A stretch of 64,000 nucleotides of DNA from a virus. The stretch lies in the IMG/VR virus record IMGVR_UViG_3300045970_000046, positions 11,120 through 75,119 of that record; one strand, 5' to 3'. The translations under genes were made by a program, and so were the position numbers. Of this stretch, positions 29,006-47,931 are shown piece after piece. The notes beneath the pieces were generated by a model. It was not told the origin of the DNA, did not search any database, and saw only the letters and a program-made list of their open reading frames with translations. Positions within the stretch are counted from its first letter, which is position 1, and each line of letters begins with the position of its first letter.

Positions 29006-30322
29006 TTAACCCGGGAGTAAACCAGGAAGCTGATTATTAATCAGGAAGTTCAAGGCGTCAATAGTAGCTTGGTCTGTAGTACCATTCAGGACTATAGCAG
29101 CGTATTCGCTAATAGCCTTACGTGTCTGGAAAACTTCCATTGTTGCCTGAATCGTAATATACTGCCCTATCTTACTTGCAACCTGAACACTCCCTGGAAG
29201 GAAACGAGCCGTACATTCAGAAGGAGTGGAAGAATCTAGTATTAGATCAACCTGGAACGGTAGAGAACAATCTCGAAGTCTACCGTAGAGTAACCAGAAA
29301 ATTTTATAGTCTGTGGGATTTAGCTTCCATTTAGCCGTTACAATAGACGAGGAATTTTGGATACCGGGACTATACCGACTTAGACCAATTCCATATTCGA
29401 TACTGATAACTTCGTCGTCTTTATCGGTAACGGTATATCCGTCCTGCAGTGGAACAAGGTATAGCTTCCGTGCCGGAGAATCCGTAGCTACTGAAGCATG
29501 ACCCGAAGCTGAACCACCTAGACCAACAGGCCCGTAGGTTCGAATATCGTCTTTAGTGGAAGCATGACCCGCGGCTGTACCTGTAAGGTCTACGGTACGA
29601 GATGTATGAGGTAAGGCCGTAGCTCCGGCATGACCTCCGGCGGTACCTCCCAAAGGAACAGGACCGGTAGTCTCTCCGGTTACATCCGCATGTCCGCCAG
29701 ACGTACCCCCTAGTAGAACGTCGGTCTGTAGCCCTGTGGCCACAGCACCCGCGTGACCAGAAGCTACCCCTGAAAGTGGAATACTGCTTGGGTTCGTCCC
29801 GAAATAACCGGTAGGTACAATTTGAATGGCAGCTGTACCTCCGTCTGTACCTACGAAGTGGATAGGTGCTAGTTTAAGTGAAACCGTTGAATTATCAGTG
29901 CTAGTAAACGAGAGTAATGTACCAGAGGTATCTAGTACATCGGCCGTAGCCGTTATATCTACTACTGTACTATGACCGGAGGCTGTACCGGATAGCCGTG
30001 TAGGTACAGTATACGAGAGTACGGACGTTAAAGCACCGCGACCACCAGCGGTACCGGCTAGTGAAGTAGGCCCTGTACTCGTCACACCGGCTGTTCCGGA
30101 ACCATGACCGGCAGACACACCACCTAATGACGTCGCTGTTGGAAGTTGAGTTGTTACCGTAGGACTAGATACAGTCGCCTGTCCGGAAGCGGTCCCGGAA
30201 AGCGGTATACGTATAGATTCTACCGTCACGTCATTAACAGTAATGGCTCCAGATCCGGGTACTACCCGTAAGGATAGAGTTGCATTACCTAGCGGTAACG
30301 TGAGGGTAGTTATAACCTTCAT
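29006..30322 (-). CDS. repeat stalk protein fused to a C-terminal Dit/gpM-like domain
   Basis: about nine xxL(S/G)G(T/V/S)(A/S)xGH repeats; C-terminal domain resembles ORF 37800-38162. Confidence 0.75.
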   Translation of the reverse strand: MKVITTLTLPLGNATLSLRVVPGSGAITVNDVTVESIRIPLSGTASGQATVSSPTVTTQLPTATSLGGVSAGHGSGTAGVTSTGPTSLAGTAGGRGALTSVLSYTVPTRLSGTASGHSTVVDITATADVLDTSGTLLSFTSTDNSTVSLKLAPIHFVGTDGGTAAIQIVPTGYFGTNPSSIPLSGVASGHAGAVATGLQTDVLLGGTSGGHADVTGETTGPVPLGGTAGGHAGATALPHTSRTVDLTGTAAGHASTKDDIRTYGPVGLGGSASGHASVATDSPARKLYLVPLQDGYTVTDKDDEVISIEYGIGLSRYSPGIQNSSSIVTAKWKLNPTDYKIFWLLYGRLRDCSLPFQVDLILDSSTPSECTARFLPGSVQVASKIGQYITIQATMEVFQTRKAISEYAAIVLNGTTDQATIDALNFLINNQLPGLLPG

Positions 30323-31941
30323 GGAGTAGCCGGAAGTGTAAGTGTATCTACTACAACACCGTTAACTAGAACTTCCACCTGACCACCTGTCGGAGAAGTG
30401 GCGTCAAGCTGCAACTGTAGGGGACGAGTCAGAGAATTCACAGTTTGAATATCCAGACCGGTGTCAGGGTTTAACGGTGCATTCAATGATATGGTACCAC
30501 CGTCTACCACAATACAATGCTGATTTGAAACCACCCCTACCTGAGAATCAACATCGGCCAGGTAGTCTCTAGTTCCAACCAGACCACCTACAGTTCTGGC
30601 TACTACGCGTACCTGCCAGTAATCGTCACCCCATGAGGTTAATTGATAGGCGTTATCGGTCCATCTGGAAACAGGTGGACCCTGATATACGCGTGTACCG
30701 TTAAGCCATAGCTCCACTTGGTTTACTGTATCGGAAGAACAGAAAGCTCCGAGGTCAACACTTACAGTACCACGAACTTTTATATGAAGCAACCCTTCGG
30801 AATGCGTATCTTCGATCCCAATATCGTTATGAGCAACATTGTACCAGTCATCTGTATGCGTCTCCCCACGCCCCTTGAGGCGTAGATACGGAAAGACTTT
30901 ATTGCTATTTCCTGGGAGCGTTGATTCAGCCTTCAGTACGGCGAGTTCTGCGTCAACTACACCGACCCCTGCGGCAGTATTGTAAAACATATCTACTTTC
31001 CATCCCTTTTTAGGTCTGGTAGCTGTCGAGATTAGTATATTTCTAACCTGTTCATTTGTTAGTGAGGGATTTTTCGCCCACACAAGTTGAGCAACACCAC
31101 CAACCACAGAGGCGATATTAATCAGATTTGGGTTCCAAAAACCTACTGTTCCAGGAAAGGGAAACTTACCGTTTTCGTGAATAGCCGAAATTCCCATATG
31201 GATCTGAGAGGCCAGTATGTCTACACGAGGTCCGTACTGGCCTCGGTAGGTGGATCCGGGATGCAGCATACTAAAGACACACCGGGCCTCATCGTCAATC
31301 CTAACTCCTCCAACACATAGAACGTGCGGGGCATCACTAGGGCTGTAGGCGGTAGCTGTTGGATTAGCTATAAATGTTTCATCGTCTCCAATATAAGAAA
31401 CGACTAGGCATCCAGCCGACCACGCATTGGCAACGGCAAGGGCTACAGCCGAGCCGGTAACGGTAGGACCAGCCGGGGCTGTTGGATGGACGGTGACGAT
31501 TACACGAGCGCCTGATGCAACGAGAAAATCTATCCCAGCTGCCATCGCCGAGGCACTTACACCCATGGCGAGCTGAATCCCATCTACTGCCGTCGCTAGA
31601 GTAGCTTCCGGGGCAACACCGTATAACCGTCCGGTTCCACCCTTACCTACAAGAGTAACAGCCGGATTGATAGAGTAGCTACCTCCACCACGGCCACTAT
31701 TGATATTAGTCCCGCCGGTGGAGATATTCCGAGCAGCTATAACCTTACCTGTTAGTTCAGGGGTGTTGGGAAAGAAGTTAGGGTAGGATCCAGCCTCGCC
31801 AGGATATTCAGCACATATAAGTCCAATAGGAAAGGTTGCCGCTCCCGTACCTATTGTCCACGCCTCGTATACATGGGACCGCTGGAACGTATGCTGCCTA
31901 CCAAACAAGGTGCTCTGATATGGGAGCTTATACCGGATCAT
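30319..31941 (-). CDS. catalytically degenerate S8 subtilase
   Basis: YGVAPEA, GPRVDILA, GVAQLVW.KNP.LT.EQVR.IL..TA kept; D, H and S motifs lost; start MIRYK at 31941 after GAAGGAGGAG. Confidence 0.8.
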   Translation of the reverse strand: MIRYKLPYQSTLFGRQHTFQRSHVYEAWTIGTGAATFPIGLICAEYPGEAGSYPNFFPNTPELTGKVIAARNISTGGTNINSGRGGGSYSINPAVTLVGKGGTGRLYGVAPEATLATAVDGIQLAMGVSASAMAAGIDFLVASGARVIVTVHPTAPAGPTVTGSAVALAVANAWSAGCLVVSYIGDDETFIANPTATAYSPSDAPHVLCVGGVRIDDEARCVFSMLHPGSTYRGQYGPRVDILASQIHMGISAIHENGKFPFPGTVGFWNPNLINIASVVGGVAQLVWAKNPSLTNEQVRNILISTATRPKKGWKVDMFYNTAAGVGVVDAELAVLKAESTLPGNSNKVFPYLRLKGRGETHTDDWYNVAHNDIGIEDTHSEGLLHIKVRGTVSVDLGAFCSSDTVNQVELWLNGTRVYQGPPVSRWTDNAYQLTSWGDDYWQVRVVARTVGGLVGTRDYLADVDSQVGVVSNQHCIVVDGGTISLNAPLNPDTGLDIQTVNSLTRPLQLQLDATSPTGGQVEVLVNGVVVDTLTLPATP

Positions 31942-34354
31942 AAACTCCTCCTTCAATGTTACCGGAGATATCAATCCCGTAGAATTGTAGCTTTCCCGAC
32001 TGGGGCGTAAGCGGAGCAAGATACGTGCTCCACGCTCCAGAACCCCACCGGTACCTAATTGTTACAGGAGCATTCTCACTAACAGACGACAGTATGATAG
32101 TACCACGGGTGGCGGTAGGCCACGAAACCGTGGTAAGTGGAGCAGCAGCTGCAGAGGTGTGACCAATAACGTCGACATACTCCTGCTCGACGGTAAGCGT
32201 AGAGGTTCTAGCAACTAATTTTAGAAGATTCCCAGCTAGAAGTCCGGAGTTCAAAGGGATTAGCGAGTCCCATGTAGTTCTAGCCCCTCCTTGGTAAACC
32301 ATTGTAGATCCGGCCCATAATTCCAAGGAGGTAATAGGATCCGAAGAATAGGCTATGAGCTCTACATATATAGTTCCATGGAGATGAACGGTAGGAACCC
32401 CCGAGCTCCAAACTACAGCATCACTGATAAGAATGGGAATATACCGCCCCATGATATCTCTTTTAAAGAAATTGCAGTAAGGAAAGATATGTCCTGCAAA
32501 CTCCGGGACTAATGACAGCGCCTTGCTAACGGCCTTTCCTGCATTCCAAATACCCGGTAACTCAGGAAATAATGTTGTAAAATCTGGATTCTGAGGCTTA
32601 TCCCAAGTATCTTTAGCTATCTGACAGATCTGAAGCCCCGTTAAATCCATGTTAGCTGAACCGATTAGGGCACAAATTCCCACTGAAAAGGGGGTAGCAG
32701 AAGACGTACCGTTAAAATAGGTGTAGTCCACTAGAGCGTTGTTTGGATTAGAAGGAGTGAACCACTCGAAATCGCTATCTATAGCTCCGGACGTTGCGAT
32801 CCCAGTTCCAGCCTGGTGGTAGACAGAGGCTAGAATCTGATGTCCATGAGCCACCGCATTAACCTTAGGACCGTAATTTGAATAGCAAGCACGCTCGTCA
32901 AGCCGGGTGGTCTCTAGACATCCAACAGACAAAAATCCATATTCCTTACAAAGATTTCCGGGACTTCCCGACATGCCCGTAGAGTAATTACACGCGGCAA
33001 ATAGGGCTGCGTCGCCGCGATCTCGGAGCAGGTCGAATGTTGTCCTATACTCCGCCAATAATCCACCGGTAGAAGTGTACGCAGAGCCCCAGGAATTATT
33101 CGAAATTTTAGCCCCCAACAGGGAACCCATTATCAGGCCCTCTGTTAGAGCCACAATGGTGACATAAGTTTCTCCCGGGGCTAGTTCCGTCCGCCAAGAG
33201 AAACCATTACAGCTAAACAAGGAGCATTCAGGAGCGACGCCAACAGGCCCGGCCTTTAGAGGTGAGGATCCTACGTAGTCCGGTTTGTTAGCGTTAGCCA
33301 AAATGACACCGGAGCAGCAGGTCCCGTGAGTTGCGGATCCAGCCGAATTATCCGTGCTGGGCCCGAATACCCCCTTACCGGGATTAAAACGGATTACTTT
33401 CTTTCCGGCAAACGCAGGCCACTGCTCTGCCGCAGTTGGGTAAAGGGGGCCTCCAGGGACTCCTAGGGTCGGATCACTAGCGGGACCCGTAAATGTAGAG
33501 TTAATTATTAATCCAGAATCATTTACCGTGACTAAGAAATCCGGGTGCCCCATCGTATACTTCCACGCCGAAAAGACATCCGACCGTAAGTGAGAATACT
33601 GTCTGGGAAGAGCCGCATCGCTGGCCCCATGGTATTTGCGTTTGGAAGTTTGATAGTTAGGGAGCCTAACATTAGTCGTAGTAGCCGAAGCGTGGGCTGT
33701 ATCTACAGATGTTCTTGGCCCAGAGGAGGAAGCCCGCAGCGAAATATAACGGCCTTGTTTGGTACCTTCTACAGAAATTGTAGATGAGGGAACAGGCCCT
33801 GCACTCGGTTGCACCATACTCCATATACCTAACCCGTGGTTGAGTGCGTCAGGTCCTAACAAAATATCTGTAGATAGCGGAGGACCTACAGGCGTAGTCC
33901 ACCACGTACTCAGAGTATCATAGTCATAACTAAACTCGTAATTATGGGCTAATAACAGAACAAGGCTGTTCTGCCCTAAAGTCGTAATTGAAGGAACAAC
34001 TAGATCCGTGTATACAGTGATGTCGGGACTTGTGGCCGTAGCGAGCGAACCCACAACCTCTATCGGGGCTGTGGGATCACAATCTCTATAGGCCGCCATA
34101 ATAATATAGCCTGTACTATGGGCTATGTCGACGTTTTCATCAGTTAATACTTTGTAGCAAATAGCGAAGAAAGTTGAAGTTCCTCCCGCAGAATTTGAAG
34201 CTCCTGGGACTAGGGTCCAACCTGTAGGAGCCGAGCTAGTTCCGGTGATGAAGGCTATAACTACATCACCAGCTTCGAGACCCGAGGGTACACCTTCCTT
34301 AGTGGGATCATCCCCACGGTACTTCCCTGTACTTACAAGATATGGGATTCTCAT
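31928..34354 (-). CDS. S8 subtilisin-like serine protease with tail-protein N-domain
   Basis: VNDSG, HGTCCSG, GVAPE, NNSWG, AACN, GTSSATP. Confidence 0.9.
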   Translation of the reverse strand: MRIPYLVSTGKYRGDDPTKEGVPSGLEAGDVVIAFITGTSSAPTGWTLVPGASNSAGGTSTFFAICYKVLTDENVDIAHSTGYIIMAAYRDCDPTAPIEVVGSLATATSPDITVYTDLVVPSITTLGQNSLVLLLAHNYEFSYDYDTLSTWWTTPVGPPLSTDILLGPDALNHGLGIWSMVQPSAGPVPSSTISVEGTKQGRYISLRASSSGPRTSVDTAHASATTTNVRLPNYQTSKRKYHGASDAALPRQYSHLRSDVFSAWKYTMGHPDFLVTVNDSGLIINSTFTGPASDPTLGVPGGPLYPTAAEQWPAFAGKKVIRFNPGKGVFGPSTDNSAGSATHGTCCSGVILANANKPDYVGSSPLKAGPVGVAPECSLFSCNGFSWRTELAPGETYVTIVALTEGLIMGSLLGAKISNNSWGSAYTSTGGLLAEYRTTFDLLRDRGDAALFAACNYSTGMSGSPGNLCKEYGFLSVGCLETTRLDERACYSNYGPKVNAVAHGHQILASVYHQAGTGIATSGAIDSDFEWFTPSNPNNALVDYTYFNGTSSATPFSVGICALIGSANMDLTGLQICQIAKDTWDKPQNPDFTTLFPELPGIWNAGKAVSKALSLVPEFAGHIFPYCNFFKRDIMGRYIPILISDAVVWSSGVPTVHLHGTIYVELIAYSSDPITSLELWAGSTMVYQGGARTTWDSLIPLNSGLLAGNLLKLVARTSTLTVEQEYVDVIGHTSAAAAPLTTVSWPTATRGTIILSSVSENAPVTIRYRWGSGAWSTYLAPLTPQSGKLQFYGIDISGNIEGGVYDPV

Positions 34355-34752
34355 TAGGTGAACCGAAAAGACGGATTAGATACTCGTAAGATATCTCCAG
34401 TATCACTCATCAGCCTTGTCTTATGGCCTAGTTCTAAAATGGCGATTAAGGCTCCGGAGGTTCCGGAGGCAACCGTGACAAGTCCGATATACCGGATAGG
34501 TACGGCGGCTGTAAATCCAGTAAATTCAAAGTTCCCCGAGCACGTAAACTGGCCTGCAACAACAGTCATATTCAACTGTGGACAATTAATTCGAGAGTAT
34601 GTCCCAGTTACGGCAGTAACTTCCGCCATATTCGCCAACGTGGTAGTATCGGATCTATCCGTTAGAGCCGCTAAATAAATACCGCCCGGCAAGGACGCGA
34701 TAAGTGCAAGACTTAGGGCCTGAGAACCCTCGATAGGAATTACAACGGCCAT
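34354..34752 (-). CDS. fibre/appendage subunit, paralogue of 37200-37772 and 51051-51434
   Basis: YL.....AEVT..GTYSR...F......IGL....SG.LIA. Confidence 0.65.
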   Translation of the reverse strand: MAVVIPIEGSQALSLALIASLPGGIYLAALTDRSDTTTLANMAEVTAVTGTYSRINCPQLNMTVVAGQFTCSGNFEFTGFTAAVPIRYIGLVTVASGTSGALIAILELGHKTRLMSDTGDILRVSNPSFRFT

Positions 34753-34991
34753 TATTGTGTCTCCACTAATGACTCGAACCAGACATTGGCCACAGCAGGG
34801 TGGGCTTCATAACGAAGGATTGCCGTGGATACGTTTGCGGTACCGACAAAAACCTCTAACACCATCGCGTTCGGATACATATTTAGCGTACGTCCCCCAC
34901 ACTCCTGAACTACACATAGACCTAGATCCTGGTCCCAATACTTCAGTCGTACCATCAATCTATCTAGTAGTATAGGGAGGGCCATATCCAT
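34752..34991 (-). CDS. hypothetical protein
   Basis: 79 aa, tightly packed in the operon. Confidence 0.55.
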   Translation of the reverse strand: MDMALPILLDRLMVRLKYWDQDLGLCVVQECGGRTLNMYPNAMVLEVFVGTANVSTAILRYEAHPAVANVWFESLVETQ

Positions 34992-34993
34992 AC

Positions 34994-35989
34994 CTAGTAT
35001 GATAAGCCACCTAGTTTAATGTCGTAAATTAGTCCGGATCCGAAGAGGTATAAGAACGTGCTCGCCGGAGTAGGCCAAGCACCAGCCGTATTTAAGGTTA
35101 CGTTTTGAATCCCATCTATGAAAGATAAAGTAGCACTCGTTCCCAGTCGGAATTCTATCCTGTATAGTTTATTTACCAACGGAGTTGGAACTAGATTAAT
35201 TTGTTCTAAACCACCAGCTACACTAATACCAGACCAAGTCCCTAGCTCAGAGTCGTACCCAGCAGAGAATCCGTTTGTATTGGATAATAGAGTCTGCAAG
35301 CTTGCGGCGGTAGTATAAGTGCTTCCAGACAGCAAGGAAAATAGTCCGGAGCCATTGATACTATTCGTGGTCCTAGCGGCGCACCTAAATTCGAGATACC
35401 AAGGAGCGTCCTGCATTCCGGTAATACTAGCCTTAATAACGTCCGCGCCAGCCATGGTGACTATACCAGCCGAAACCGTAGGGGCACCTGCTACAATAGA
35501 GAACTGACCTAGAGTATTGGATGCAAAATCTTCATAGAGGACAACGCTGGGAGTGGTTTGAATAGTTAGAGTACGAGGACTCGCGAATAAGGCCGAAATA
35601 TTACCAGCCGCGTCTTTGGCCCATGGGTAGAACGTTACGGATCCACGACCCTCCGCAATCCAGGAAGTTGGCACAGTAGCTACCCACTTAGGATCTGCGG
35701 GGGACGGTTTAGTAGCGGATTCTGTAATTAAGTATCCTGCTATACCGCCAGCATGCGTTGCGTTAAGATTGTTAATCAGAATACGAGCCCCGAGATGGGC
35801 TGTGTCATTGGCGTAGAGATTAAACGCATTCATTGAGGGAAGAGTATCTTCCACCGTAAAGGACCTACCGGAGACTACCACCGTACCGTTTACTTTCATA
35901 TCAACAGACTGAGCACCCCCGGCCATAGCTACATCCGGAATGGACCAATTTCCTGCCCCGTCAGCCGTAGTGGACCCAAGTAAAGCCAT
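34994..35989 (-). CDS. Ig-like / lectin-like appendage protein
   Basis: LLGSTTADGAGNWS half-Ig; GYLITESATKP...WAKDAAGN Ig module; C-terminal beta-sandwich. Confidence 0.7.
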   Translation of the reverse strand: MALLGSTTADGAGNWSIPDVAMAGGAQSVDMKVNGTVVVSGRSFTVEDTLPSMNAFNLYANDTAHLGARILINNLNATHAGGIAGYLITESATKPSPADPKWVATVPTSWIAEGRGSVTFYPWAKDAAGNISALFASPRTLTIQTTPSVVLYEDFASNTLGQFSIVAGAPTVSAGIVTMAGADVIKASITGMQDAPWYLEFRCAARTTNSINGSGLFSLLSGSTYTTAASLQTLLSNTNGFSAGYDSELGTWSGISVAGGLEQINLVPTPLVNKLYRIEFRLGTSATLSFIDGIQNVTLNTAGAWPTPASTFLYLFGSGLIYDIKLGGLSY

Positions 35990-35991
35990 AG

Positions 35992-36993
35992 CTATGTCCC
36001 CGTATCGTAAATAGTAACAGTTGATCCGGCCGCCGCGGTACCCGAGAACGTAACGGAGGCCGATGTAGTCTGACCAGCGGTCGGTGTTGCAAGTGTGTTC
36101 GAAACCGAACCACCTGAAATACTGACGGTTGAGGTTGCCCCCGCAATCCCAGCTCCGCTTCCCGCGATAGGCGCCGGAGCCCCCGTCTGGGTTCCGCTGC
36201 CACCAGAGCCAAGGCCTCCAGCCGAACCACCAAGAGATACTGTAGTAGCTGGTGCACTGGTAGTATCGGCCTGACCACCGGCAGCCCCGGAGAGGGCCGA
36301 GTCTACGATAACCGCACCGGCCGAATGTATCTCAATCGTCGCGTTAGGAACGACGACGCCGCTGAATGTAACCAAGGCCCCAACAGTAGACCCTTCAACC
36401 GGGAATTCCATAGACGCATCGGAGCCCGTCGATAGAGTCCCAAAAGATCCAGCCTGACCAGCGGCGGTACCACCCTGTGGACCAGAAGTTGCCGCGGTTC
36501 CCTGTCCACCGGCGTGCCCCACGGAGGTCCCAGAGAGAGGAACAACCTGAGACAACGGGGCCGTAGCACCGGCCCGACCACCAGCCGTAGCTTGTAACGG
36601 AGTTTGACCCGGTGTTGTTGTAGATATCGGACCTAGTTCGTTACCGTGGCCACCCGCTGTACCACCTAGGCCAGTAGAAACACCAAGAGCGGCGGTGGTT
36701 CCCCCTAAACCACCTGCCGCGCCTGTTGTTTTCCGTTCAGTGGATAGAATCCCACTTACATCTGCGTGACCCGACGTTGTTCCACCAGCTCCACCAGTGT
36801 CTAGTTGAGCACTAACGGTGGCCCTACCCGCAGCCGTTGCTTCTAGTATAAGTCCGAAGGGTAAAGGTGATTCCCAATAACCTGAACTGTTGGCCTGAAC
36901 AGGAGTAAGAGCCTGGCCGGCGACGGTAGGCGTCACAAAAGCGTTTGGAGTGGTTGAACCCCAAACCTTTACTCCACCAATCTGAACAGGCAC
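35992..36993 (-). CDS. Gly/Thr/Ala repeat protein with partial Ig domains
   Basis: about ten LxGT(A/S)xG(H/Q/R)A repeats; ends SGTAAAGSTVTIYD; GGAGG RBS with GTG start. Confidence 0.75.
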   Translation of the reverse strand: MPVQIGGVKVWGSTTPNAFVTPTVAGQALTPVQANSSGYWESPLPFGLILEATAAGRATVSAQLDTGGAGGTTSGHADVSGILSTERKTTGAAGGLGGTTAALGVSTGLGGTAGGHGNELGPISTTTPGQTPLQATAGGRAGATAPLSQVVPLSGTSVGHAGGQGTAATSGPQGGTAAGQAGSFGTLSTGSDASMEFPVEGSTVGALVTFSGVVVPNATIEIHSAGAVIVDSALSGAAGGQADTTSAPATTVSLGGSAGGLGSGGSGTQTGAPAPIAGSGAGIAGATSTVSISGGSVSNTLATPTAGQTTSASVTFSGTAAAGSTVTIYDTGT

Positions 36994-37008
36994 GAAAACC
37001 TCCGGAAA

Positions 37009-37188
37009 CTACTTCGTACCGGTAGAACTAGCCGCGCGGGCCGTACCAGATAACGGAGTAACTTTTCCGGTAGTCTTCTCCTTCTGACCTGCGTTACTGG
37101 CCCCCTTAGCATCACCGCTTAACTTAGTGGGAGGAGTTTGAACACATGAACAAAGGACGACTACTAGAGCCACTAGAAGGATCTTCAT
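37009..37188 (-). CDS. 59-aa lipoprotein carrying two stalk repeats (not in ORF track)
   Basis: MKILLVALVVVLCSC lipobox, then TKLSGDAKGAS and TPLSGTARAAS. Confidence 0.65.
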   Translation of the reverse strand: MKILLVALVVVLCSCVQTPPTKLSGDAKGASNAGQKEKTTGKVTPLSGTARAASSTGTK

Positions 37189-37199
37189 AGTGGCACCGA

Positions 37200-37772
37200 T
37201 TACTGCTCTGTAACGTGAAGCGCCCCTGCCGTAAACGACGCCGTCGAGTTCTGCGTAACGGCTACAGGGGCGTTATTCACAGCACCCCAGTAGAGTAGGT
37301 TACCGGCGGTAGCTGCATCGTAAATCCCAAAGCACTGAACGGACCACGAAGTACCGCTGCTGTTAGTCCAGGCGGCGCTACCGGAAATGGAACCGGCATT
37401 AACGTACTCGTCGGTATTCGTGTAGGTATTGCAGTTACCGGTACCGGAACCAGTGCAGCAGGTAAACGGCGCCTGGCTAGTGGTGCACGCACCGTTGGTC
37501 GCGTGTGTCCAACCGGTACCATTAGCGATAGCCGCCGAACGAGTAGTATATCCGGGTTGCGAACCGCTATTAAATTCAACTCCGGCGGTACCAGCCGCAG
37601 GGCACGTCGAGAATAACCCGACATAGGTATTGACCGGAGCCGAGAACGCCGTATTACCGAAAATCTCACCAAGCACCTTAGCCGAAAGATACGAATACTT
37701 CCCACCGGCCACGGCTAACAGCGGAAGAACTAGGGCGAGGGCAACAACTGCGAACTTCTTATTAAACTTCAT
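37200..37772 (-). CDS. fibre/appendage subunit with signal peptide and Cys-rich insert
   Basis: GAAGGAG RBS; MKFNKKFAVVALALVLPLLAVA; YVGLF...FGIYDAATAGNLLYWG..F.AGAL.V. Confidence 0.75.
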   Translation of the reverse strand: MKFNKKFAVVALALVLPLLAVAGGKYSYLSAKVLGEIFGNTAFSAPVNTYVGLFSTCPAAGTAGVEFNSGSQPGYTTRSAAIANGTGWTHATNGACTTSQAPFTCCTGSGTGNCNTYTNTDEYVNAGSISGSAAWTNSSGTSWSVQCFGIYDAATAGNLLYWGAVNNAPVAVTQNSTASFTAGALHVTEQ

Positions 37773-37799
37773 CGGATACTCCTTCAAGCGGTGGAACAG

Positions 37800-38162
37800 T
37801 TAGGAAACGATAGCTAAAGTAGCCTTAACAAGATACTGATCTCCGTGAATCTCCGCCAACTTCATCGTACCTTTTACGAATTGTACAGTATGCTCAGATA
37901 TTGTAGGATCGTCTACCAATAAATTGATCCGAAAAGCTGATGCCGTAAACTGGACTAACCTATAAAACGCACGAATATAATCGTATTCTTGAGCATTACA
38001 ATACCATGTAACGTCAATATGAGGCAATGTTTTATTTATAGGCTTAATTGAAGCCCTCCGGAATTTAGAGAAGCCTCCTTCAACAGCGAACTTTATTACA
38101 TCAGCCTCAAATGTAATCCTATAACCTGATTCTTCCGGTGTAAGGTCTAGGGCTATAGACAT
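37800..38162 (-). CDS. distal tail (Dit / gpM-like) protein
   Basis: directly after the tape measure; GY...GG.S.FRR...V.W...F.I.L. Confidence 0.7.
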   Translation of the reverse strand: MSIALDLTPEESGYRITFEADVIKFAVEGGFSKFRRASIKPINKTLPHIDVTWYCNAQEYDYIRAFYRLVQFTASAFRINLLVDDPTISEHTVQFVKGTMKLAEIHGDQYLVKATLAIVS

Positions 38163-41100
38163 TAGCGCTTCCGTCCAGTCGTAGTATGCGACGAGAGGGC
38201 CTTACTGACTCGACTATTAGCGTTTATAATATCTCTGGCCACAATGCTAGGTGTATGCGTCTGGACGGCGGCCAGGGCCTCTTCGCGGGCGATAATCCGA
38301 ATATCGTTCCCATTACGTTCAACACTGATATTGGAAGGTGTGTAATTCTCAATTTTCACGTTAACTTGGGTTCCGCTGGCGCCCGCCTTACCGGGGGATC
38401 CCCCACCACCCGCACCAGAGGACCCCCTATTTAGAGCCTCTAGCATTGGACGGTAGCGCCGGGTAGCCTCGGCATTAACAACATACTCCTGCCCATGGAC
38501 TAGTCCAGCTACTTCACCTGTAGGACCATCACCGGTGTAGCCACCGACCATATAACCGGTAGAGATAAGATCACGCTTTACCGTAGAAGTTGTATCTAGA
38601 GCTTGGTAAGTAGACTTATTCTGGAATGTCGAATTAGTAGACGAGCTATACGACCTGAACATCTCGGGTGTAATGGTCTTGCCCTTGTTTAGATCTTCTA
38701 AGAGAGGGCGGTTCTTTTTAGTAGCGGTGGCGTTAAGTACATACTCCTGACCGTGATAGAAGCCCGCTACACTATTAACGGGACTATCACCGGTGTAACC
38801 GCCAGACTTCATTCCAGCCCCACCGATAGCTGCTGCGATAGCCGCGGTAGAGAGCATCGATGCGTCAGCCGCTAGACCAGCCGCGCCGAAGGTCGCGATA
38901 CTCACAAGAGCTGCCGGTCCTGCCCACATGGCCCCCGTTTCGGCGGCCATGGTAGCTCCGGCTGCCGTTGCGGTCGCCATACCCATAGTGGCTATAGCCC
39001 TGTTAACGAGGAATTGTAGGCCAATCTTAATTAAGGAGCTAAGTAATTCGGCTAGGATATTACGAGATATATCACCTAACGTCTTTTCTAGGTTTTCACC
39101 GAATACAATAGCTCTTGCGAACGCCGTACCAATACCATCTATTAACTGTGTGACGGGTTTCGCAAAGGTGGAGCCTAACTGACGGGCGAAGTCAGTGGTA
39201 CGTCGGCTAAGTAGGTCGATCTGTTTAAGCATACCGTCGAAGAAGGTACCTTCTCCGGACTGTATATTAGCTTCCGCTTGTAAATCGCGGAGGTCCATCT
39301 TAACACTCTGTATCCCAGATTCCACCGCTCCCCAATCCGTTTGACCAAAGATTGGAGTAGCATACGTATTTCCGGTTTCCCAGTCGCTAACCGGATTCAC
39401 GTGACCAATTACAGGGGTGTTATCTTTAATCAACTGAGCTGTAGACTTCTCTAACACTTCTTTGTTAACCTGTTCTTGGACCTTAGGCTTTTCGGCACGA
39501 CGATTAATCGTACTATAGAGACGGTCTACTTCCTGTGCTATACGCTTATACTCGGCCCTCTCTTCCTGTAGTTTATTAATACGAGACTGGGCTGCAAGCT
39601 CATTAGTTGTAGGTACGTGGCCAAGCTCCCGTTTAAGTTTAAGCTCATCCTCCATAGCTTGAAGTAAGCCCTTACGGGCTGCGGAGGACCCCTTGTAAAT
39701 ACTAATCTCGCGTTCAAGAGCGGCTTCTAATGTCTCAAGTGGGAATAGGGCTTCCTTAGAATGTTCCACATAAGCGGCGAGTAACCTGTTACGCTCTGCC
39801 ATCGTAATAAGCGTCTCTTGTGTAACAGTACCGTCAGGTTGCACAACAGGGGCGGCGACCGGCAGGGCTGCAGAGGCGTCTAATAATCCCTTAGCTTGGT
39901 CTAGGCGGATCTGAGCTGCAAAGACAGGACTCATCTGTTTCTGAATCTCTTCTAGGCCGCGCTTGTATTCTTCAATCTTGCCTTTGTCTAAAGCAAAGAT
40001 GGGTTTCTTGGCATCTTTACTGATATCGTCCTTAGTCCCCTTATTAGCGGCGTCTGTACGGGCTTTAGCCGTCTCCCGGAACTTAGAAATAAGCCCATCT
40101 AACTGGGACATTACGCCATCGGTCCAATCCCCAATACGATCACCACTGAAGGACCAAGTCTTTAACTTCTCCATATCAGCTAAGAGTTTATCGAACGAAC
40201 CCTTAGCATTATTTTCTACTTCAAACTTAACTGGAGTAATGGTTGCCGTAGTGCCAAAGAGTTTCTTAAAGATAGCACTTTGGGCTACAGAGTTTAGCCC
40301 ATCTATAAGTGTATTTATGATAGGAGCGGCTAACTGGGCTAGGCCGCTAAGAGCTTGTGAGAAGATATCCGTGAGTACACTAGGTATGCTACGGAGTAGT
40401 AGAGGAATAAGATTAGCTACATAGTCTACACTACCCAGAATACCATTCAGGATCCCCTTAAAGATTGTTATCGTCGCCTTTGTAATCCATTCAAAGAGGC
40501 TATAAATCTTACGTTCAATAAAGACGAGTAGTTTATCCCAACCGCTCAAGGCCTCTATAGGATCGATACCCTGAGGCTTATGCGACGACATACTAGATGT
40601 TACAGAAGAGGCCTGAGGAGAAGAGGCTAGTGAAGCTCCGCTGCCCGGGGCCTGTCCTTGGACTAGAGTAGATTGTACCGTCTTAGCTATTGTATTCTGA
40701 AGAGTAGAACCGCTCGTAGGACTAGTATTATCCTTGAAAACGTCAGTCTTATAACCGGCCCTCTTATTTAGATCGCGTGTAATTAAGGCGATATAAAGCT
40801 TAGTTTCATCGGCTAATTGATCGAAGACGGTAGTTAGATCCTTAGTCTTATCTAAGAGTTTTCCACCGTTAACTTTATCGGCCCGGTTAGGTCCGCCGTT
40901 ATAACCAGCTAGGGCTTTCTCTACACTACCATCGAATTTATTTAATAGCTCACGGAGGTAAGACGTACCTCCTTCGATATTATTCTTTGGAACATTTGGG
41001 TTAACACCCAAATCCGCAGCAGTCTTTGGCATCAGCTGCATTAAGCCAATCGCTCCAACAGGTGAAAGAGCGTTTGGATTATTATTAGACTCCTGCTTCA

Positions 41101-44100
41101 TTACGGCCGCTATAAGATGTACGCTTACATCGAACTGCTTAGCCGCATCGATAATATCCTTACCGTAAGGATGACTCGTCATCGAGGCGTCGTCTTTAGG
41201 ATTATAGCCCCAAGCTACTCCCTCTTCAGAACGCGGAACAACCGACGGTACCTGTAACGCGGTGGCCACAGGCTCCGGGGCGCCGAATCCGAGCTTCTGT
41301 AAGAAGGGGAACGTATCGGATACAATCTTACCGAGTGTCCTAAATACGTCACCTAGTGTAATCCCGGCTACTTCGATATTATCCCTAAAGAGGTATAGAC
41401 CTGCGGTCAAAGCCGCTAAAGCAGCTACACTAACACCTAGCGGGTTAGCGGACATAAAGCCAAGCATACCGGAACCGACGGCTCCACCGGCTGCAGCCCC
41501 CACCGCCCCTCTAGTCGCGACTCCACCAGCCGCTGTAAGCGGTGTAACGCCCCATGCCGGTAGAGCAGAAACGGCAGCACCCTGCGCTGTTTGACCAATC
41601 AGTTTAGATATACCAGAAAGGGCCGCGGGAATGGCTAATGCGGCTAGTGCGGCGGCTACCGTACCTAGACTGGCCGCTAGTTTATCGAGGTTACCGCCTA
41701 ACCAATCGATCATCGTATTAAACTTATCGGAAATCTTATAAGCTTCGTTAATCTCTCCTACGAATTTAGTAACATTCGTAGATAGGTTGTTAAAGCCTTG
41801 AGCGAACGATCTCTGAACGGTGTCGACTTCTTTATCAAGTTGACTTGTATCTGCCAAGAAAGCCTTAAACACTACCGACGAATCGATAGTTTCTTCTTCC
41901 TTACCCTTAATAAGCTGCTTCCAGTTTAGACCACCACCACGACGATTCTGTTCTTCTACGGCCTTACGAAACATCACAATAGACTTACTACCACCCTGTA
42001 GATGATCGGCTATACCCTTTAAGATTCTAGGTGTATTTTCTGAAATCGAGTTAAACTCCTGCATACGAATCTTACCCATACCTAGCATCTGACCTAACTG
42101 TAAGAGGGAACCTCTCGCAGCGTCAGCACTGGTACCTTGAATGAGTAAGGCTTTACCGACGTTCTCTACAAATTGGATGGCCGTAGCTTGTGAAGCGCCA
42201 ACGGTTAGGGAGGCCATAGAGATACGACGGTAGAGTGTAACGACGTCGTCAAACGGTTGACGAGTACGTAAAGCGACTTGGACTAGTTCTTCCTGGACAG
42301 CCGTAGCCTCTTTAACACTTGAGGTTGAAAGTCGGACGCTGTTACTGGCGTTAATCCAACCGTCAGCCGATTGCTTTAACTCACGAATCATTAGGAAGCC
42401 CGCAAACATTTCGGCCGCCATCCGGATATACCAGAGTTGGCGAACGAAATGAGCGGCAGAACTAGTGGCCTGCTGGGCGGCCCTGGCATGAGAGTTGTAT
42501 CCGGCAGTCGTCGAAGCTAATGCCCGGCCTGTTCCGTAGATCGCGTTATTATACTGCTGGGCTGTGATTGTACCTTCCCGGTATAGACGGTTAGCGGCTT
42601 CCTGGCGAGCCGTACTAACTCCCGGCGCCGGAGAATTGTACAACGAGTTCAACTTAGCCATCTCGGCATTTAAGGCTACAACGGCCTGTCGCTCTTCGAC
42701 ACGGCTCCTAACAAGTTCCCGATTAGTATTGTTGAGAGGTTGAACTGCCTGACCCGGGGCTGTTGTAGCTTCAGCGACACGGGTATAAGCCCCTTCCATC
42801 TGGACACTACGTTGATATTCCTTATGGGAGGCTACCCCCTTAGCTAGAGCGTCACCTTCCTTATTCAAGGCGGCTACTTCACGATCTAGTTGAGCAATGT
42901 AAGCGTCGATAGAGGTAGTCGTCGCCTGTATCTCGTTTGAAAGCTTACCAGTACCGCTCATTGTAGCTTGTCCGAGTTTACCAGCCGCCGTACCAGCCCT
43001 ATCGAAATCAAGGGTTAGTTGGCCTACACCAGCAGAGGCTAGTTTGGCCGCGGTAGAGATAGTCTTAACTTCGGTGGCCACAGTACCGGCGCGAGAAGCG
43101 GCCTCTTGTAGGAAACGTTCCTGCCGGGCGGAGTCTTCCAACCATGTTACGCCGGTCGACTTATCTGTAAAGTCAAGTTGACGGGTAGTAAGTTCTTCTT
43201 TAGTCTGACCCTTCAAAGCTTGCTTATCAGCACCGGGAGCCGTCAGATTAAGACTCATCTGGGCTTTAGTTTGCGCCGCGGCTAGTTCTTCAGTAGCCTT
43301 CGTCTTCTCACGTAAGGCCCGAGCTTCCGCTAGGATACGTTGTTCCTCGATCGGAGAACCGGCAAACGCCCTACGACCAACATCACGGGAAGCTAGTTCG
43401 TCCTTAATCTCCTGATTTACATCTTTGGGCTTAGTTCCAGGGATCGTCGGAGTAGTGGGTGCGAGTCTACCACCTTGTAGATTCAACGTAAGTTGTTGAA
43501 TGTTCTCGGCAGCTTCTTTAGCCTTAAGGGCAGTACCTCCTAATTGAGCTTCCATTAGAGGCATGAAGCCTAGAGACTGTTGACCTACAGTTCCAAGCTG
43601 ACGCAGCTTAACCGAAAGTATCTCAGCCTCGTCCGTCATCCGCTTAATAGCGAAGCCACGGGAATTACGGTCTACCTCTTCGTTCCAAGGAACACCACCC
43701 GTAGCGAATTCACGCTGGGGTGGGCGCATGGCGTTAGTTGTGGCTAATTCAACTTCACGTTGCCTAACAACATCTTGATAGTGTGCTTTTGTATCCGGAG
43801 GATGAACTACTTCGGGCCGGGCAAACATATCCATTTGCCCAGTAGTACCTAAATCTTTATTAGCGACCTTTAACTGTGCCAGTAGGTCTAACTGCTTCTT
43901 AGTCTTATCCCCAAGCTGGACTAACTGGTTAGAGCACTCAGTAATAAGTGTCCTTGGTTCAACCTTAAGTAATTCCGCACGGATCTGATTTATCTTAGCT
44001 TCGTACTCCGCCATTCCTTTGTCTTTAGGAATAGGCGGAGGCTCGTCCCAAGGATCGGGAAGCTTAGGCCGAGGAACATTCGGTAGGGGTAGTTGAACAG

Positions 44101-44542
44101 GCGGTGGTACAATGACCGGGGCAGGCGCCATCTTAGCACCGAACATCTCACCCTGTTCACCCACAGCCCCCTTAAGAGTAGGGGCGGCCATCGAAGCCAG
44201 CACAGATTTAAACTGTGTGGCTAACCCCATCACACTTTCAAATTCTTTCGCCAGGCCTTCCAGGTCCTTAGTGATCTCTCCGGGGGCCTTACCCCGTAGG
44301 GAATTTAATTGATCCCGTAGTTTTCCAACCGCCGTCGAACTGGTACCTACTTGACTTGTAAGGTCGGTAAACTGTTTTCCCAGTTCCGAACCGGGCTTAA
44401 ACGAAAGGTTTTTTAGATCTCCCTGCAACTCCGATATAACCGACTGGGCCTTTTCGGCAGACTTAGCCACATCCTCGAAACTCCGCGCAACTACACGCGA
44501 ACCAGTTTCGGATATGGATATAAGAATTGTTTCGTCGGCCAT
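38162..44542 (-). CDS. tape measure protein with SLT lytic transglycosylase domain
   Basis: LLQLGQ...EFNSI.EN.P tape-measure motif; QES...SPVGAIGLMQLMP..A, YNGGP; duplicated GGYTGD...HGQEYV. Confidence 0.95.
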   Translation of the reverse strand: MADETILISISETGSRVVARSFEDVAKSAEKAQSVISELQGDLKNLSFKPGSELGKQFTDLTSQVGTSSTAVGKLRDQLNSLRGKAPGEITKDLEGLAKEFESVMGLATQFKSVLASMAAPTLKGAVGEQGEMFGAKMAPAPVIVPPPVQLPLPNVPRPKLPDPWDEPPPIPKDKGMAEYEAKINQIRAELLKVEPRTLITECSNQLVQLGDKTKKQLDLLAQLKVANKDLGTTGQMDMFARPEVVHPPDTKAHYQDVVRQREVELATTNAMRPPQREFATGGVPWNEEVDRNSRGFAIKRMTDEAEILSVKLRQLGTVGQQSLGFMPLMEAQLGGTALKAKEAAENIQQLTLNLQGGRLAPTTPTIPGTKPKDVNQEIKDELASRDVGRRAFAGSPIEEQRILAEARALREKTKATEELAAAQTKAQMSLNLTAPGADKQALKGQTKEELTTRQLDFTDKSTGVTWLEDSARQERFLQEAASRAGTVATEVKTISTAAKLASAGVGQLTLDFDRAGTAAGKLGQATMSGTGKLSNEIQATTTSIDAYIAQLDREVAALNKEGDALAKGVASHKEYQRSVQMEGAYTRVAEATTAPGQAVQPLNNTNRELVRSRVEERQAVVALNAEMAKLNSLYNSPAPGVSTARQEAANRLYREGTITAQQYNNAIYGTGRALASTTAGYNSHARAAQQATSSAAHFVRQLWYIRMAAEMFAGFLMIRELKQSADGWINASNSVRLSTSSVKEATAVQEELVQVALRTRQPFDDVVTLYRRISMASLTVGASQATAIQFVENVGKALLIQGTSADAARGSLLQLGQMLGMGKIRMQEFNSISENTPRILKGIADHLQGGSKSIVMFRKAVEEQNRRGGGLNWKQLIKGKEEETIDSSVVFKAFLADTSQLDKEVDTVQRSFAQGFNNLSTNVTKFVGEINEAYKISDKFNTMIDWLGGNLDKLAASLGTVAAALAALAIPAALSGISKLIGQTAQGAAVSALPAWGVTPLTAAGGVATRGAVGAAAGGAVGSGMLGFMSANPLGVSVAALAALTAGLYLFRDNIEVAGITLGDVFRTLGKIVSDTFPFLQKLGFGAPEPVATALQVPSVVPRSEEGVAWGYNPKDDASMTSHPYGKDIIDAAKQFDVSVHLIAAVMKQESNNNPNALSPVGAIGLMQLMPKTAADLGVNPNVPKNNIEGGTSYLRELLNKFDGSVEKALAGYNGGPNRADKVNGGKLLDKTKDLTTVFDQLADETKLYIALITRDLNKRAGYKTDVFKDNTSPTSGSTLQNTIAKTVQSTLVQGQAPGSGASLASSPQASSVTSSMSSHKPQGIDPIEALSGWDKLLVFIERKIYSLFEWITKATITIFKGILNGILGSVDYVANLIPLLLRSIPSVLTDIFSQALSGLAQLAAPIINTLIDGLNSVAQSAIFKKLFGTTATITPVKFEVENNAKGSFDKLLADMEKLKTWSFSGDRIGDWTDGVMSQLDGLISKFRETAKARTDAANKGTKDDISKDAKKPIFALDKGKIEEYKRGLEEIQKQMSPVFAAQIRLDQAKGLLDASAALPVAAPVVQPDGTVTQETLITMAERNRLLAAYVEHSKEALFPLETLEAALEREISIYKGSSAARKGLLQAMEDELKLKRELGHVPTTNELAAQSRINKLQEERAEYKRIAQEVDRLYSTINRRAEKPKVQEQVNKEVLEKSTAQLIKDNTPVIGHVNPVSDWETGNTYATPIFGQTDWGAVESGIQSVKMDLRDLQAEANIQSGEGTFFDGMLKQIDLLSRRTTDFARQLGSTFAKPVTQLIDGIGTAFARAIVFGENLEKTLGDISRNILAELLSSLIKIGLQFLVNRAIATMGMATATAAGATMAAETGAMWAGPAALVSIATFGAAGLAADASMLSTAAIAAAIGGAGMKSGGYTGDSPVNSVAGFYHGQEYVLNATATKKNRPLLEDLNKGKTITPEMFRSYSSSTNSTFQNKSTYQALDTTSTVKRDLISTGYMVGGYTGDGPTGEVAGLVHGQEYVVNAEATRRYRPMLEALNRGSSGAGGGGSPGKAGASGTQVNVKIENYTPSNISVERNGNDIRIIAREEALAAVQTHTPSIVARDIINANSRVSKALSSHTTTGRKR

Positions 44543-47478: not shown

Positions 47479-47931
47479 TTATTTCACCTCTGAGTAGGAA
47501 AAACCGGCTTCCGCATTCATCTGAAACCAACCATTTTCTGGACCTATCTCTACGACGTGACAATTACGGAACCAGATGCCATTTGGTGAAGCCTTTCCTT
47601 CAAAGGCATCTTTGGCTATAGTAGCTAAACCTTCAGCAATTGTCAAACTTTTTCCGCTCCCTGATGGACCGAAACACTGCACATAAAGGATCCCTTGATA
47701 TTCGTAAAGTCGGCTACCAACCGGTCCTAACGCAACCTGCCTACCAGACGTATGAATCAGTAGAGCTTTCGCGTAGGGGATACCAGCCGGTGGAGTATTG
47801 GTATATTCTACACCCTGCCAGTAGATCTCGGGAGCAATAGATTGATGCGGTAGGTTAAACGGTGGGGCATATAGCTCCCAGTCTAACTTAAGCATCGTAA
47901 AGATTTCGTCACGGGCCTCAGCCGACGTCAT
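47479..47931 (-). CDS. tail terminator
   Basis: G.L.VQ.FGP.G.G, WFRN...EIG...GWFQ.N. Confidence 0.82.
   Translation of the reverse strand: MTSAEARDEIFTMLKLDWELYAPPFNLPHQSIAPEIYWQGVEYTNTPPAGIPYAKALLIHTSGRQVALGPVGSRLYEYQGILYVQCFGPSGSGKSLTIAEGLATIAKDAFEGKASPNGIWFRNCHVVEIGPENGWFQMNAEAGFSYSEVK

Follow-up and report, generated by a model that had tools for sequence, protein, structure and literature searches.

The late operon of an uncultured phage encodes a predicted subtilisin-like (S8) protease, a catalytically dead relative of it, and a separate small homologue of a subtilase prodomain, and homology places all three in a cassette between two copies of a tail-ring domain. The DNA analyzed here, called the window, is a 64,000-nt stretch corresponding to bases 11120 to 75119 of the 75,119-bp IMG/VR virus record IMGVR_UViG_3300045970_000046, which CheckV rates as complete. 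In window coordinates, the putative protease S8-A (808 aa) spans 31928-34354, its dead relative S8-B (540 aa) spans 30319-31941, and the prodomain-like protein gp79 (79 aa) spans 34752-34991, all on the minus strand, as are the other genes discussed below. S8-A and S8-B are the sole S8 genes of the whole record. The reading we favor, and to which we give about an even chance, is that the cassette specifies a tail-tip appendage in which a prodomain controls a protease and a dead protein serves as its structural or binding partner.

S8-A has the appearance of a complete subtilase. The four S8 motifs are found at residues 277-281 (VNDSG), 343-349 (HGTCCSG), 453-456 (AACN), and 549-555 (GTSSATP), and the protein matches Pfam Peptidase_S8 with 68.7 bits (E 6.9e-19) where the cut-off is 21.8. 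The model of its S8 domain aligns with deseasin (3vv3) over 287 residues, with a Z-score of 34.7 and a root-mean-square deviation of 2.0, and with thermitase (1tec) at a Z-score of 34.3. The catalytic codons were checked individually and lie at 33518-33520 (D279), 33326-33328 (H343), 32987-32989 (N456), and 32702-32704 (S551). These four columns are near-invariant, with the same residue in 123-142 of approximately 140 aligned sequences, and S8-A also retains the near-invariant cleft residues S421, G423, G549, T550, and P555. Two adjacent cysteines, Cys346 and Cys347, sit just after the catalytic His; it is conceivable that these, or a third cysteine at position 455 discussed below, expose the activity of S8-A to redox or metal influence.

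The catalytic domain of S8-A (aa 236-615, 32510-33649) is flanked by additional modules on both sides. The C-terminal part (31931-32497) is made up of a β-sandwich (aa 620-735) and a small immunoglobulin (Ig)-like end domain (aa 738-808), both of which are confidently modelled; one relative that aligns to the Ig-like domain, P0024, has a weak match to CHB_HEX_C_1 (E 0.0015). The N-terminal domain (aa 1-235, 33650-34354) is modelled by AlphaFold with a predicted local distance difference test (pLDDT) score below 50, and it has a counterpart in a tail protein. Residues 16-189 are 30% identical over 177 aa (pairwise E 1e-14) to residues 136-305 of P0069, a 400-aa protein from NCBI whose N-terminus is a Mu Gp48/baseplate wedge domain (PF10076 3.8e-22, phrog_203 2.6e-42). 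This similarity shows that a domain homologous to the S8-A N-terminus moves among tail proteins of different phage types, and makes the N-terminal domain a candidate for a virion-anchoring or peripheral tail domain.

S8-B starts with a subtilase domain (aa 1-345, 30907-31941); the rest, encoded by 30319-30906, is a β-sandwich (aa 346-460) and a C-terminal tail whose model is poor (aa 461-540). Its match to Pfam Peptidase_S8 is weaker than that of S8-A, at 32.9 bits, and remains above threshold. The predicted structure is a subtilisin fold (predicted template modelling score 0.77), for which Foldseek returns 2sni_E with an E of 2.5e-14 and a template modelling (TM) score by target of 0.80; pLDDT falls below 50 at residues 462-517. 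The sandwich is matched by a hidden Markov model (HMM) of this domain at residues 348-455 (2.7e-11). Translation is assigned to the ATG at 31941, which is preceded by a GAAGGAGGAG Shine-Dalgarno sequence; from this start the gene overlaps the end of S8-A, stop codon included, by 14 nt. A 566-aa version starting at an upstream TTG, as given in the mechanical list of open reading frames, was rejected because the ATG has the strong Shine-Dalgarno sequence.

The catalytic positions of S8-B are occupied by other residues. In three alignments, Cys43 replaces the Asp, Tyr89 (or Gly) replaces the His, and Asp186 replaces the oxyanion Asn, while the Ser position is taken by Gly267, Ile274, or Asn according to gap placement; Val151 is a further mark of the domain, which has no nucleophile Ser. 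The corresponding segments read ICAE (42-45), IGDD (184-187), and NPNLINIAS (270-278), with no HGT. Among 152 sequences aligned to the family HMM, 117 keep all four catalytic residues intact, and S8-B alone has lost all four. It also lacks six further near-invariant residues of the active site and cleft (G281, S421, G423, G549, T550, and P555). Sequence and predicted fold together identify S8-B as a pseudoprotease of the S8 fold. The initial annotation had described an 808-aa protein with all S8 motifs and no signal peptide beside a 540-aa protein altered at the catalytic positions, and had read the two as an enzyme plus a pseudo-enzyme. The motifs, the catalytic codons, and the altered segments were all located as described, no hydrophobic N-terminal signal is present in S8-A or in S8-B, and the pairing is well supported by sequence and predicted fold, with catalysis itself being a prediction.

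Both proteins belong to a rare family whose other members are known only from metagenomes. When 1.84 billion representative proteins were searched exhaustively with HMMER, 285 matched, 32 of them at E<=1e-10. The family, defined as an S8 domain plus the specific β-sandwich by means of the sandwich HMM, comprises 44 retrieved sequences including S8-A and S8-B. The closest relatives are metagenomic proteins of about 600 aa that are 35-39% identical over the S8 domain and the sandwich that follows. No signal peptide was found in the family members inspected, while classical subtilases in the same hit list do have one; the lack of signal peptides in the family fits either release by lysis or carriage on the particle. 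Searches of 50,697 GenBank phage records with the region (megablast) and with S8-A (tblastn) gave no match at 1e-5, and a tblastn-type search of the same records at E<=1 returned only a chance-level match to a Synechococcus phage subtilase. Word-index homologue searches with S8-A, S8-B, and gp132 (longer forms), the last a small protein described below, found none. With 32 of 1.84 billion representatives matching at E<=1e-10 and none of the 50,697 phage records, the family can be regarded as unexplored.

By BLASTP, the two proteins are 27% identical (S8-A 479-695 against S8-B 209-427, E 4e-11), a match that spans the shared β-sandwich. In a maximum-likelihood tree, S8-A is sister to the metagenomic protein P0006 (SH-like approximate likelihood ratio test, SH-aLRT, 98) within an eight-member clade (SH-aLRT 100), and S8-B sits on a very long branch in another part of the family. 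The approximately unbiased (AU) test rejects an exclusive sisterhood of the two (p 0.003), and this result, together with the sister relationship of S8-A to P0006, led us to reject a recent tandem duplication of S8-A. The description of S8-B as a tandem paralogue therefore holds insofar as the two share one family and its β-sandwich, and fails insofar as they are not recent duplicates; the AU test indicates that the pair is old or was separately acquired. Two-unit arrangements are found elsewhere in the family. P0011, P0014, and P0022 each carry two S8-sandwich units in one chain with no prodomain at the start, as in S8-B, and are thus fused equivalents of the two genes described here. Since fused double units exist with both units intact, the pairing of two subtilase units recurs in the family, and the dead state of S8-B is a derived peculiarity.

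Neither S8-A nor S8-B has a prodomain in cis. A domain of about 75 aa stands immediately ahead of the S8 domain in 28 of the 44 family sequences. gp79 is homologous to this domain, and its identity to the version in P0008 is 40% over 73 aa (E 1.9e-9). Matches below 1e-4 were also obtained to the N-terminal domains of P0004, P0010, P0007, and P0020, with identities of 30-40% over all five. In three relatives this domain gives borderline or sub-threshold hits to the Pfam family Fervidolysin_NPro-like (PF22148), at 20.6 (P0004), 15.6, and 14.9 bits, under the cut-off of 21; gp79 itself has no Pfam match, and PDB sequence searches with gp79 or gp132 gave nothing meaningful. Structural neighbors of the gp79 model in the ESM Atlas include S8 peptidases with PF22148 (TM by query 0.73-0.79), which is a lead rather than an alignment, as well as small stand-alone proteins with PF18492 (ORF_2_N). 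From its name, we take the latter family to be built on ORF2, the external chaperone of the Aeromonas protease ASP. On these homologies, gp79 is a stand-alone version of the prodomain-like domain that most of the family carries in cis, and by analogy it is presumed to act in trans as a folding chaperone and temporary inhibitor.

The ends of the proteins point in the same direction. A Tyr at the junction between prodomain and mature protein is conserved in 11 of 11 aligned proteins and lies 11-12 residues ahead of a conserved Gln of the mature N-terminus, the same spacing as for the processing-site Tyr of subtilisin BPN'. The last residue of gp79 falls 2-3 residues short of this Tyr, S8-A keeps it as Tyr241, and S8-B begins 3 residues before it (Y4), like a processed subtilase lacking its prodomain. 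From these positions, the split between genes coincides with the presumed autoprocessing site. Between gp79 and S8-A lies gp132 (132 aa, 34354-34752), for which Pfam, PHROG, and PDB gave no match. Over 109 aa it shares 47% identity (E 5e-29) with residues 5-111 of P0006, the closest relative of S8-A, where this region is fused to the S8 domain.

The tail-module setting proposed by the initial annotation is real. A tape measure gene (2126 aa, 38162-44542; phrog_3336 2.4e-93) lies upstream of the cassette, and genes for gpL-like (DUF1833; phrog_396 5.4e-32), gpK-like, and gpJ-like (phrog_469 4.7e-185) proteins lie downstream of it, followed by a 1760-aa fibre-like protein. The gpJ-like protein is 35-41% identical to tip proteins of siphoviruses of Acinetobacter, Erwinia, and Klebsiella. 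The same order is seen in Acinetobacter phage HD01, which encodes a tape measure, a 167-aa protein, and gpL-, gpK-, and gpJ-like proteins with no cassette in between. Genes of the late operon are tightly packed, with neighbors from gp331 through the gpJ-like gene abutting or overlapping by 1-14 nt. The gp132 stop overlaps the S8-A start (TAATG), and the S8-B stop overlaps the ATG of the following gene, gp438 (ATGA). Promoter and terminator scans gave background levels only.

The borders of the cassette are formed by two related domains. Directly after the tape measure gene is gp120 (120 aa, 37800-38162), a Dit/gpM-like protein (phrog_384 5.3e-9). At the other end, gp438 (438 aa, 29006-30322) joins a repeat stalk (aa 1-284) to a second Dit/gpM-like domain (aa 285-397), with residues 288-433 matching phrog_384. 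The two copies are 25% identical (gp120 against gp438 residues 287-397, 3e-10), and the 167-aa protein that follows the tape measure in HD01 shares 30% identity with the C-terminal domain of gp438 (5e-14). Because both border proteins match this domain, and HD01 has no genes at the equivalent place, homology supports the placement of the S8 genes in a cassette of approximately 8.8 kb (~29006-37800) that was inserted between two tail-ring Dit/gpM-like copies. Between gp120 and gp79 the operon encodes several proteins that match no family. Also part of the same packed cassette, upstream of gp79, are two proteins of about 330 aa each (34994-36993) that matched nothing in Pfam, PHROG, or NCBIfam at the thresholds applied. 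The stalk of gp438 (29471-30322) is rich in Gly, Ala, and His and contains about eight copies of the motif L-x-G-T-A-x-G-H-A separated by Thr/Ser/Val-rich spacers, and it might act as a stalk with repeated docking sites. The strand with which it opens, TTLTLP, resembles the closing strand of S8-B, DTLTLP.

Several observations concern the operon outside the cassette. The tape measure contains a lytic transglycosylase/endolysin-like domain at approximately residues 1122-1322 (phrog_669 1.3e-30, phrog_2013 4.1e-27), and tape-measure models align to it mainly from residue ~430, and mostly from ~660, onward, leaving a long N-terminal extension. A 717-aa protein (47928-50081) resembles head closure protein Hc1 (phrog_161) in its final 124 residues only, and its first ~590 are without a match. 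The region is present in two pond metagenome DNA runs, which are probably its source.

In the favored reading, the cassette would form an accessory appendage at the tip of a siphovirus tail, set between the ring-forming Dit/gpM-like copies. S8-A, which has no signal peptide, would be produced in the host cytoplasm as a working subtilase, and there gp79 would fold it and keep it inhibited in the manner of classical propeptides and of ASP/ORF2. gp132 and the 235-aa N-terminal domain of S8-A may serve as docking modules. S8-B, which lacks both catalysis and the canonical peptide-binding cleft, may be an adaptor between the protease and the gp438 stalk, or else a binder of the target. Carried on the virion, the protease would open the way to the receptor by cutting a protein of the host surface or matrix. 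A single trans prodomain could serve both subtilase-fold proteins, which would explain why it was split off from its position in cis.

A number of points weigh against this reading. No RNA run is listed among those that contain the region, and the metagenomic relatives, compared here as protein sequences, may or may not be phage-borne. The double-unit relatives keep the catalytic residues in both units, bar one Asn-to-Asp change; an active and a dead unit side by side is not, on these sequences, a rule of the family. When the pro-like domain is compared with classical prodomains, hhalign gives a probability of only 11%. The N-terminal domain of S8-A is unresolved in the AlphaFold model, and its Atlas neighbors scored only 0.83. 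In S8-A itself, the residue before the oxyanion Asn is the rare Cys455 (32990-32992), where 128 of approximately 140 sequences have Gly. An intact triad is also no guarantee of activity, as has been shown for the Csp proteins of Clostridioides difficile (PMC7200643).

Two alternatives to a tail-tip enzyme are of comparable, low probability. It is possible, though we consider it unlikely, that S8-A is an assembly or maturation protease that trims a tail or appendage part in the infected cell (such as the tape measure, fibre proteins encoded by the cassette, or the N-terminal domain of S8-A at Tyr241), with gp79 and S8-B as regulators and with no function in the finished particle. Cytoplasmic proteins without signal peptides that are co-translated with tail genes would suit such a role, and the conserved Tyr ahead of the S8 domain would permit self-cleavage of the N-terminal domain. 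However, S8-A has a β-sandwich like that of surface enzymes, an Ig-like end, and an N-terminal domain shared with a baseplate wedge protein. HD01 also makes the same tail tip without such a protease, so it is not needed for core tail assembly, and we know of no S8-family phage maturation protease.

The second of these alternatives, which we hold to be equally doubtful, is that neither protein is catalytic and that the subtilase fold serves as a receptor-binding or structural scaffold, the triad of S8-A being a relic. The Gly-to-Cys change at position 455 and the lack of a prodomain in cis would both be explained in this way, the example of S8-B shows that function can be lost from the fold in this setting, and homologues of CspA may retain a triad and yet be inactive (PMC7200643). 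Against this, S8-A keeps D, H, N, and S together with S421, G423, G549, T550, and P555, all of which are lost in S8-B; the losses in S8-B show what relaxed constraint looks like here. The retention of a dedicated prodomain gene also speaks against this reading.

A more elaborate version of the tail-tip enzyme is a triggered switch, for which we see a slim chance. The bound trans prodomain would act as a safety catch and the dead relative as the sensor or receptor-binding subunit, and contact with the host would release the catch, a logic similar to that of the Csp proteins. Proteolysis would in this case be confined to the adsorption site. Slimmer still is the chance that the S8 genes are non-virion cargo of the late operon, encoding a released or intracellular protease for host takeover, help with lysis, nutrient release, or counter-defence. 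Morons are often located in tail regions, and S8-A does match the generic "subtilase" model of PADLOC (3.7e-9). However, the borders of the cassette are duplicated tail-ring domains, its last gene encodes a fusion of such a domain with a repeat stalk, the coupling to tail genes is tight, and S8-B, gp79, and gp132 have no defence-system match. A role as a defence system was rejected, as the generic subtilase model is all that PADLOC gives. Activity of S8-B through a relocated or non-canonical active site is very improbable: His152 in the former substrate-binding strand and Ser278 one turn into the nucleophile helix might be proposed for it, but the His-bearing helix has no His, the Asp site has no acid, the nucleophile loop is rebuilt and modelled with low confidence, and ten near-invariant positions are lost together.

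If the tail-tip protease is borne out, it would add a protease to the enzymes carried on phage particles. Like virion-associated depolymerases and tail lysins, S8-A joins an enzyme domain to putative tail-anchoring modules and is encoded in a tail-tip block. The known virion-associated tail enzymes, however, almost all cleave glycans or peptidoglycan, whereas here the enzyme is a predicted S8 protease. Enzymes on particles that cut sugars and cell walls are well known, and a characterized protease on a phage tail is essentially undescribed; we found no paper describing an S8 protease as a characterized phage tail enzyme. The cassette would illustrate a safe route, through a separately encoded prodomain, by which a phage makes a broad protease in the cytoplasm, and would be a natural case in which a subtilase prodomain has been split into its own gene at approximately the presumed processing site. 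It would also suggest that protein layers on the host surface are barriers to phages and are cleared by enzymes.

Among cellular enzymes, S8-A resembles the classical pro-subtilisins (BPN'/E and fervidolysin, with I9 and Fervidolysin_NPro-like prodomains) in its S8 fold, its D-H-S order, and its oxyanion Asn. It differs from them in having no signal peptide, a prodomain in trans, extra N- and C-terminal domains, and a phage genome as its source. More specific parallels are offered by two systems that are also among the structural matches of S8-A, namely the Csp proteins (CspB, CspC, and CspA; 4i0w, 6mw4, and 9pr9) and ASP/ORF2 (3wqb). In C. difficile, an active Csp protease of the S8 family is encoded beside, or fused to, dead S8 paralogues whose role is that of regulator or partner, and the prodomains are folding chaperones (PMC7200643). 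The cassette is alike in encoding an active and a dead S8 paralogue together (compare the CspBA fusion and CspC), and fused double units also occur in its family. The Csp proteins, however, are spore germination proteins of Firmicutes with a prodomain in cis on each, whereas the present pair is encoded in a phage tail module with the prodomain as a separate gene. S8-B differs in having lost all four catalytic residues and the cleft, and it belongs to a separate sequence family with its own β-sandwich and no signal peptide. Csp is thus an analogue and not a member of the family of S8-A and S8-B, and, should the cassette work in the favored way, the pair described here would add an independent second example of an active subtilase that works with a dead one.

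The closest parallel for gp79 is found in Aeromonas sobria. ASP is a subtilase without a propeptide that needs the small, adjacently encoded ORF2 for folding and for a temporary block of its active site (PMC5638518), and in both systems a small separate gene lies near a subtilase without a propeptide of its own. ASP differs in being a secreted, kexin-like bacterial virulence protease with orf2 just downstream, whereas gp79 lies upstream of S8-A with gp132 in between. Neither the Csp set nor ASP/ORF2, the closest systems, is phage-borne, and neither combines a dead partner with a trans prodomain. Unlike ORF2, gp79 is demonstrably a split-off form of the prodomain-like domain that most of its own family carries in cis, and it may serve two subtilase-fold proteins.

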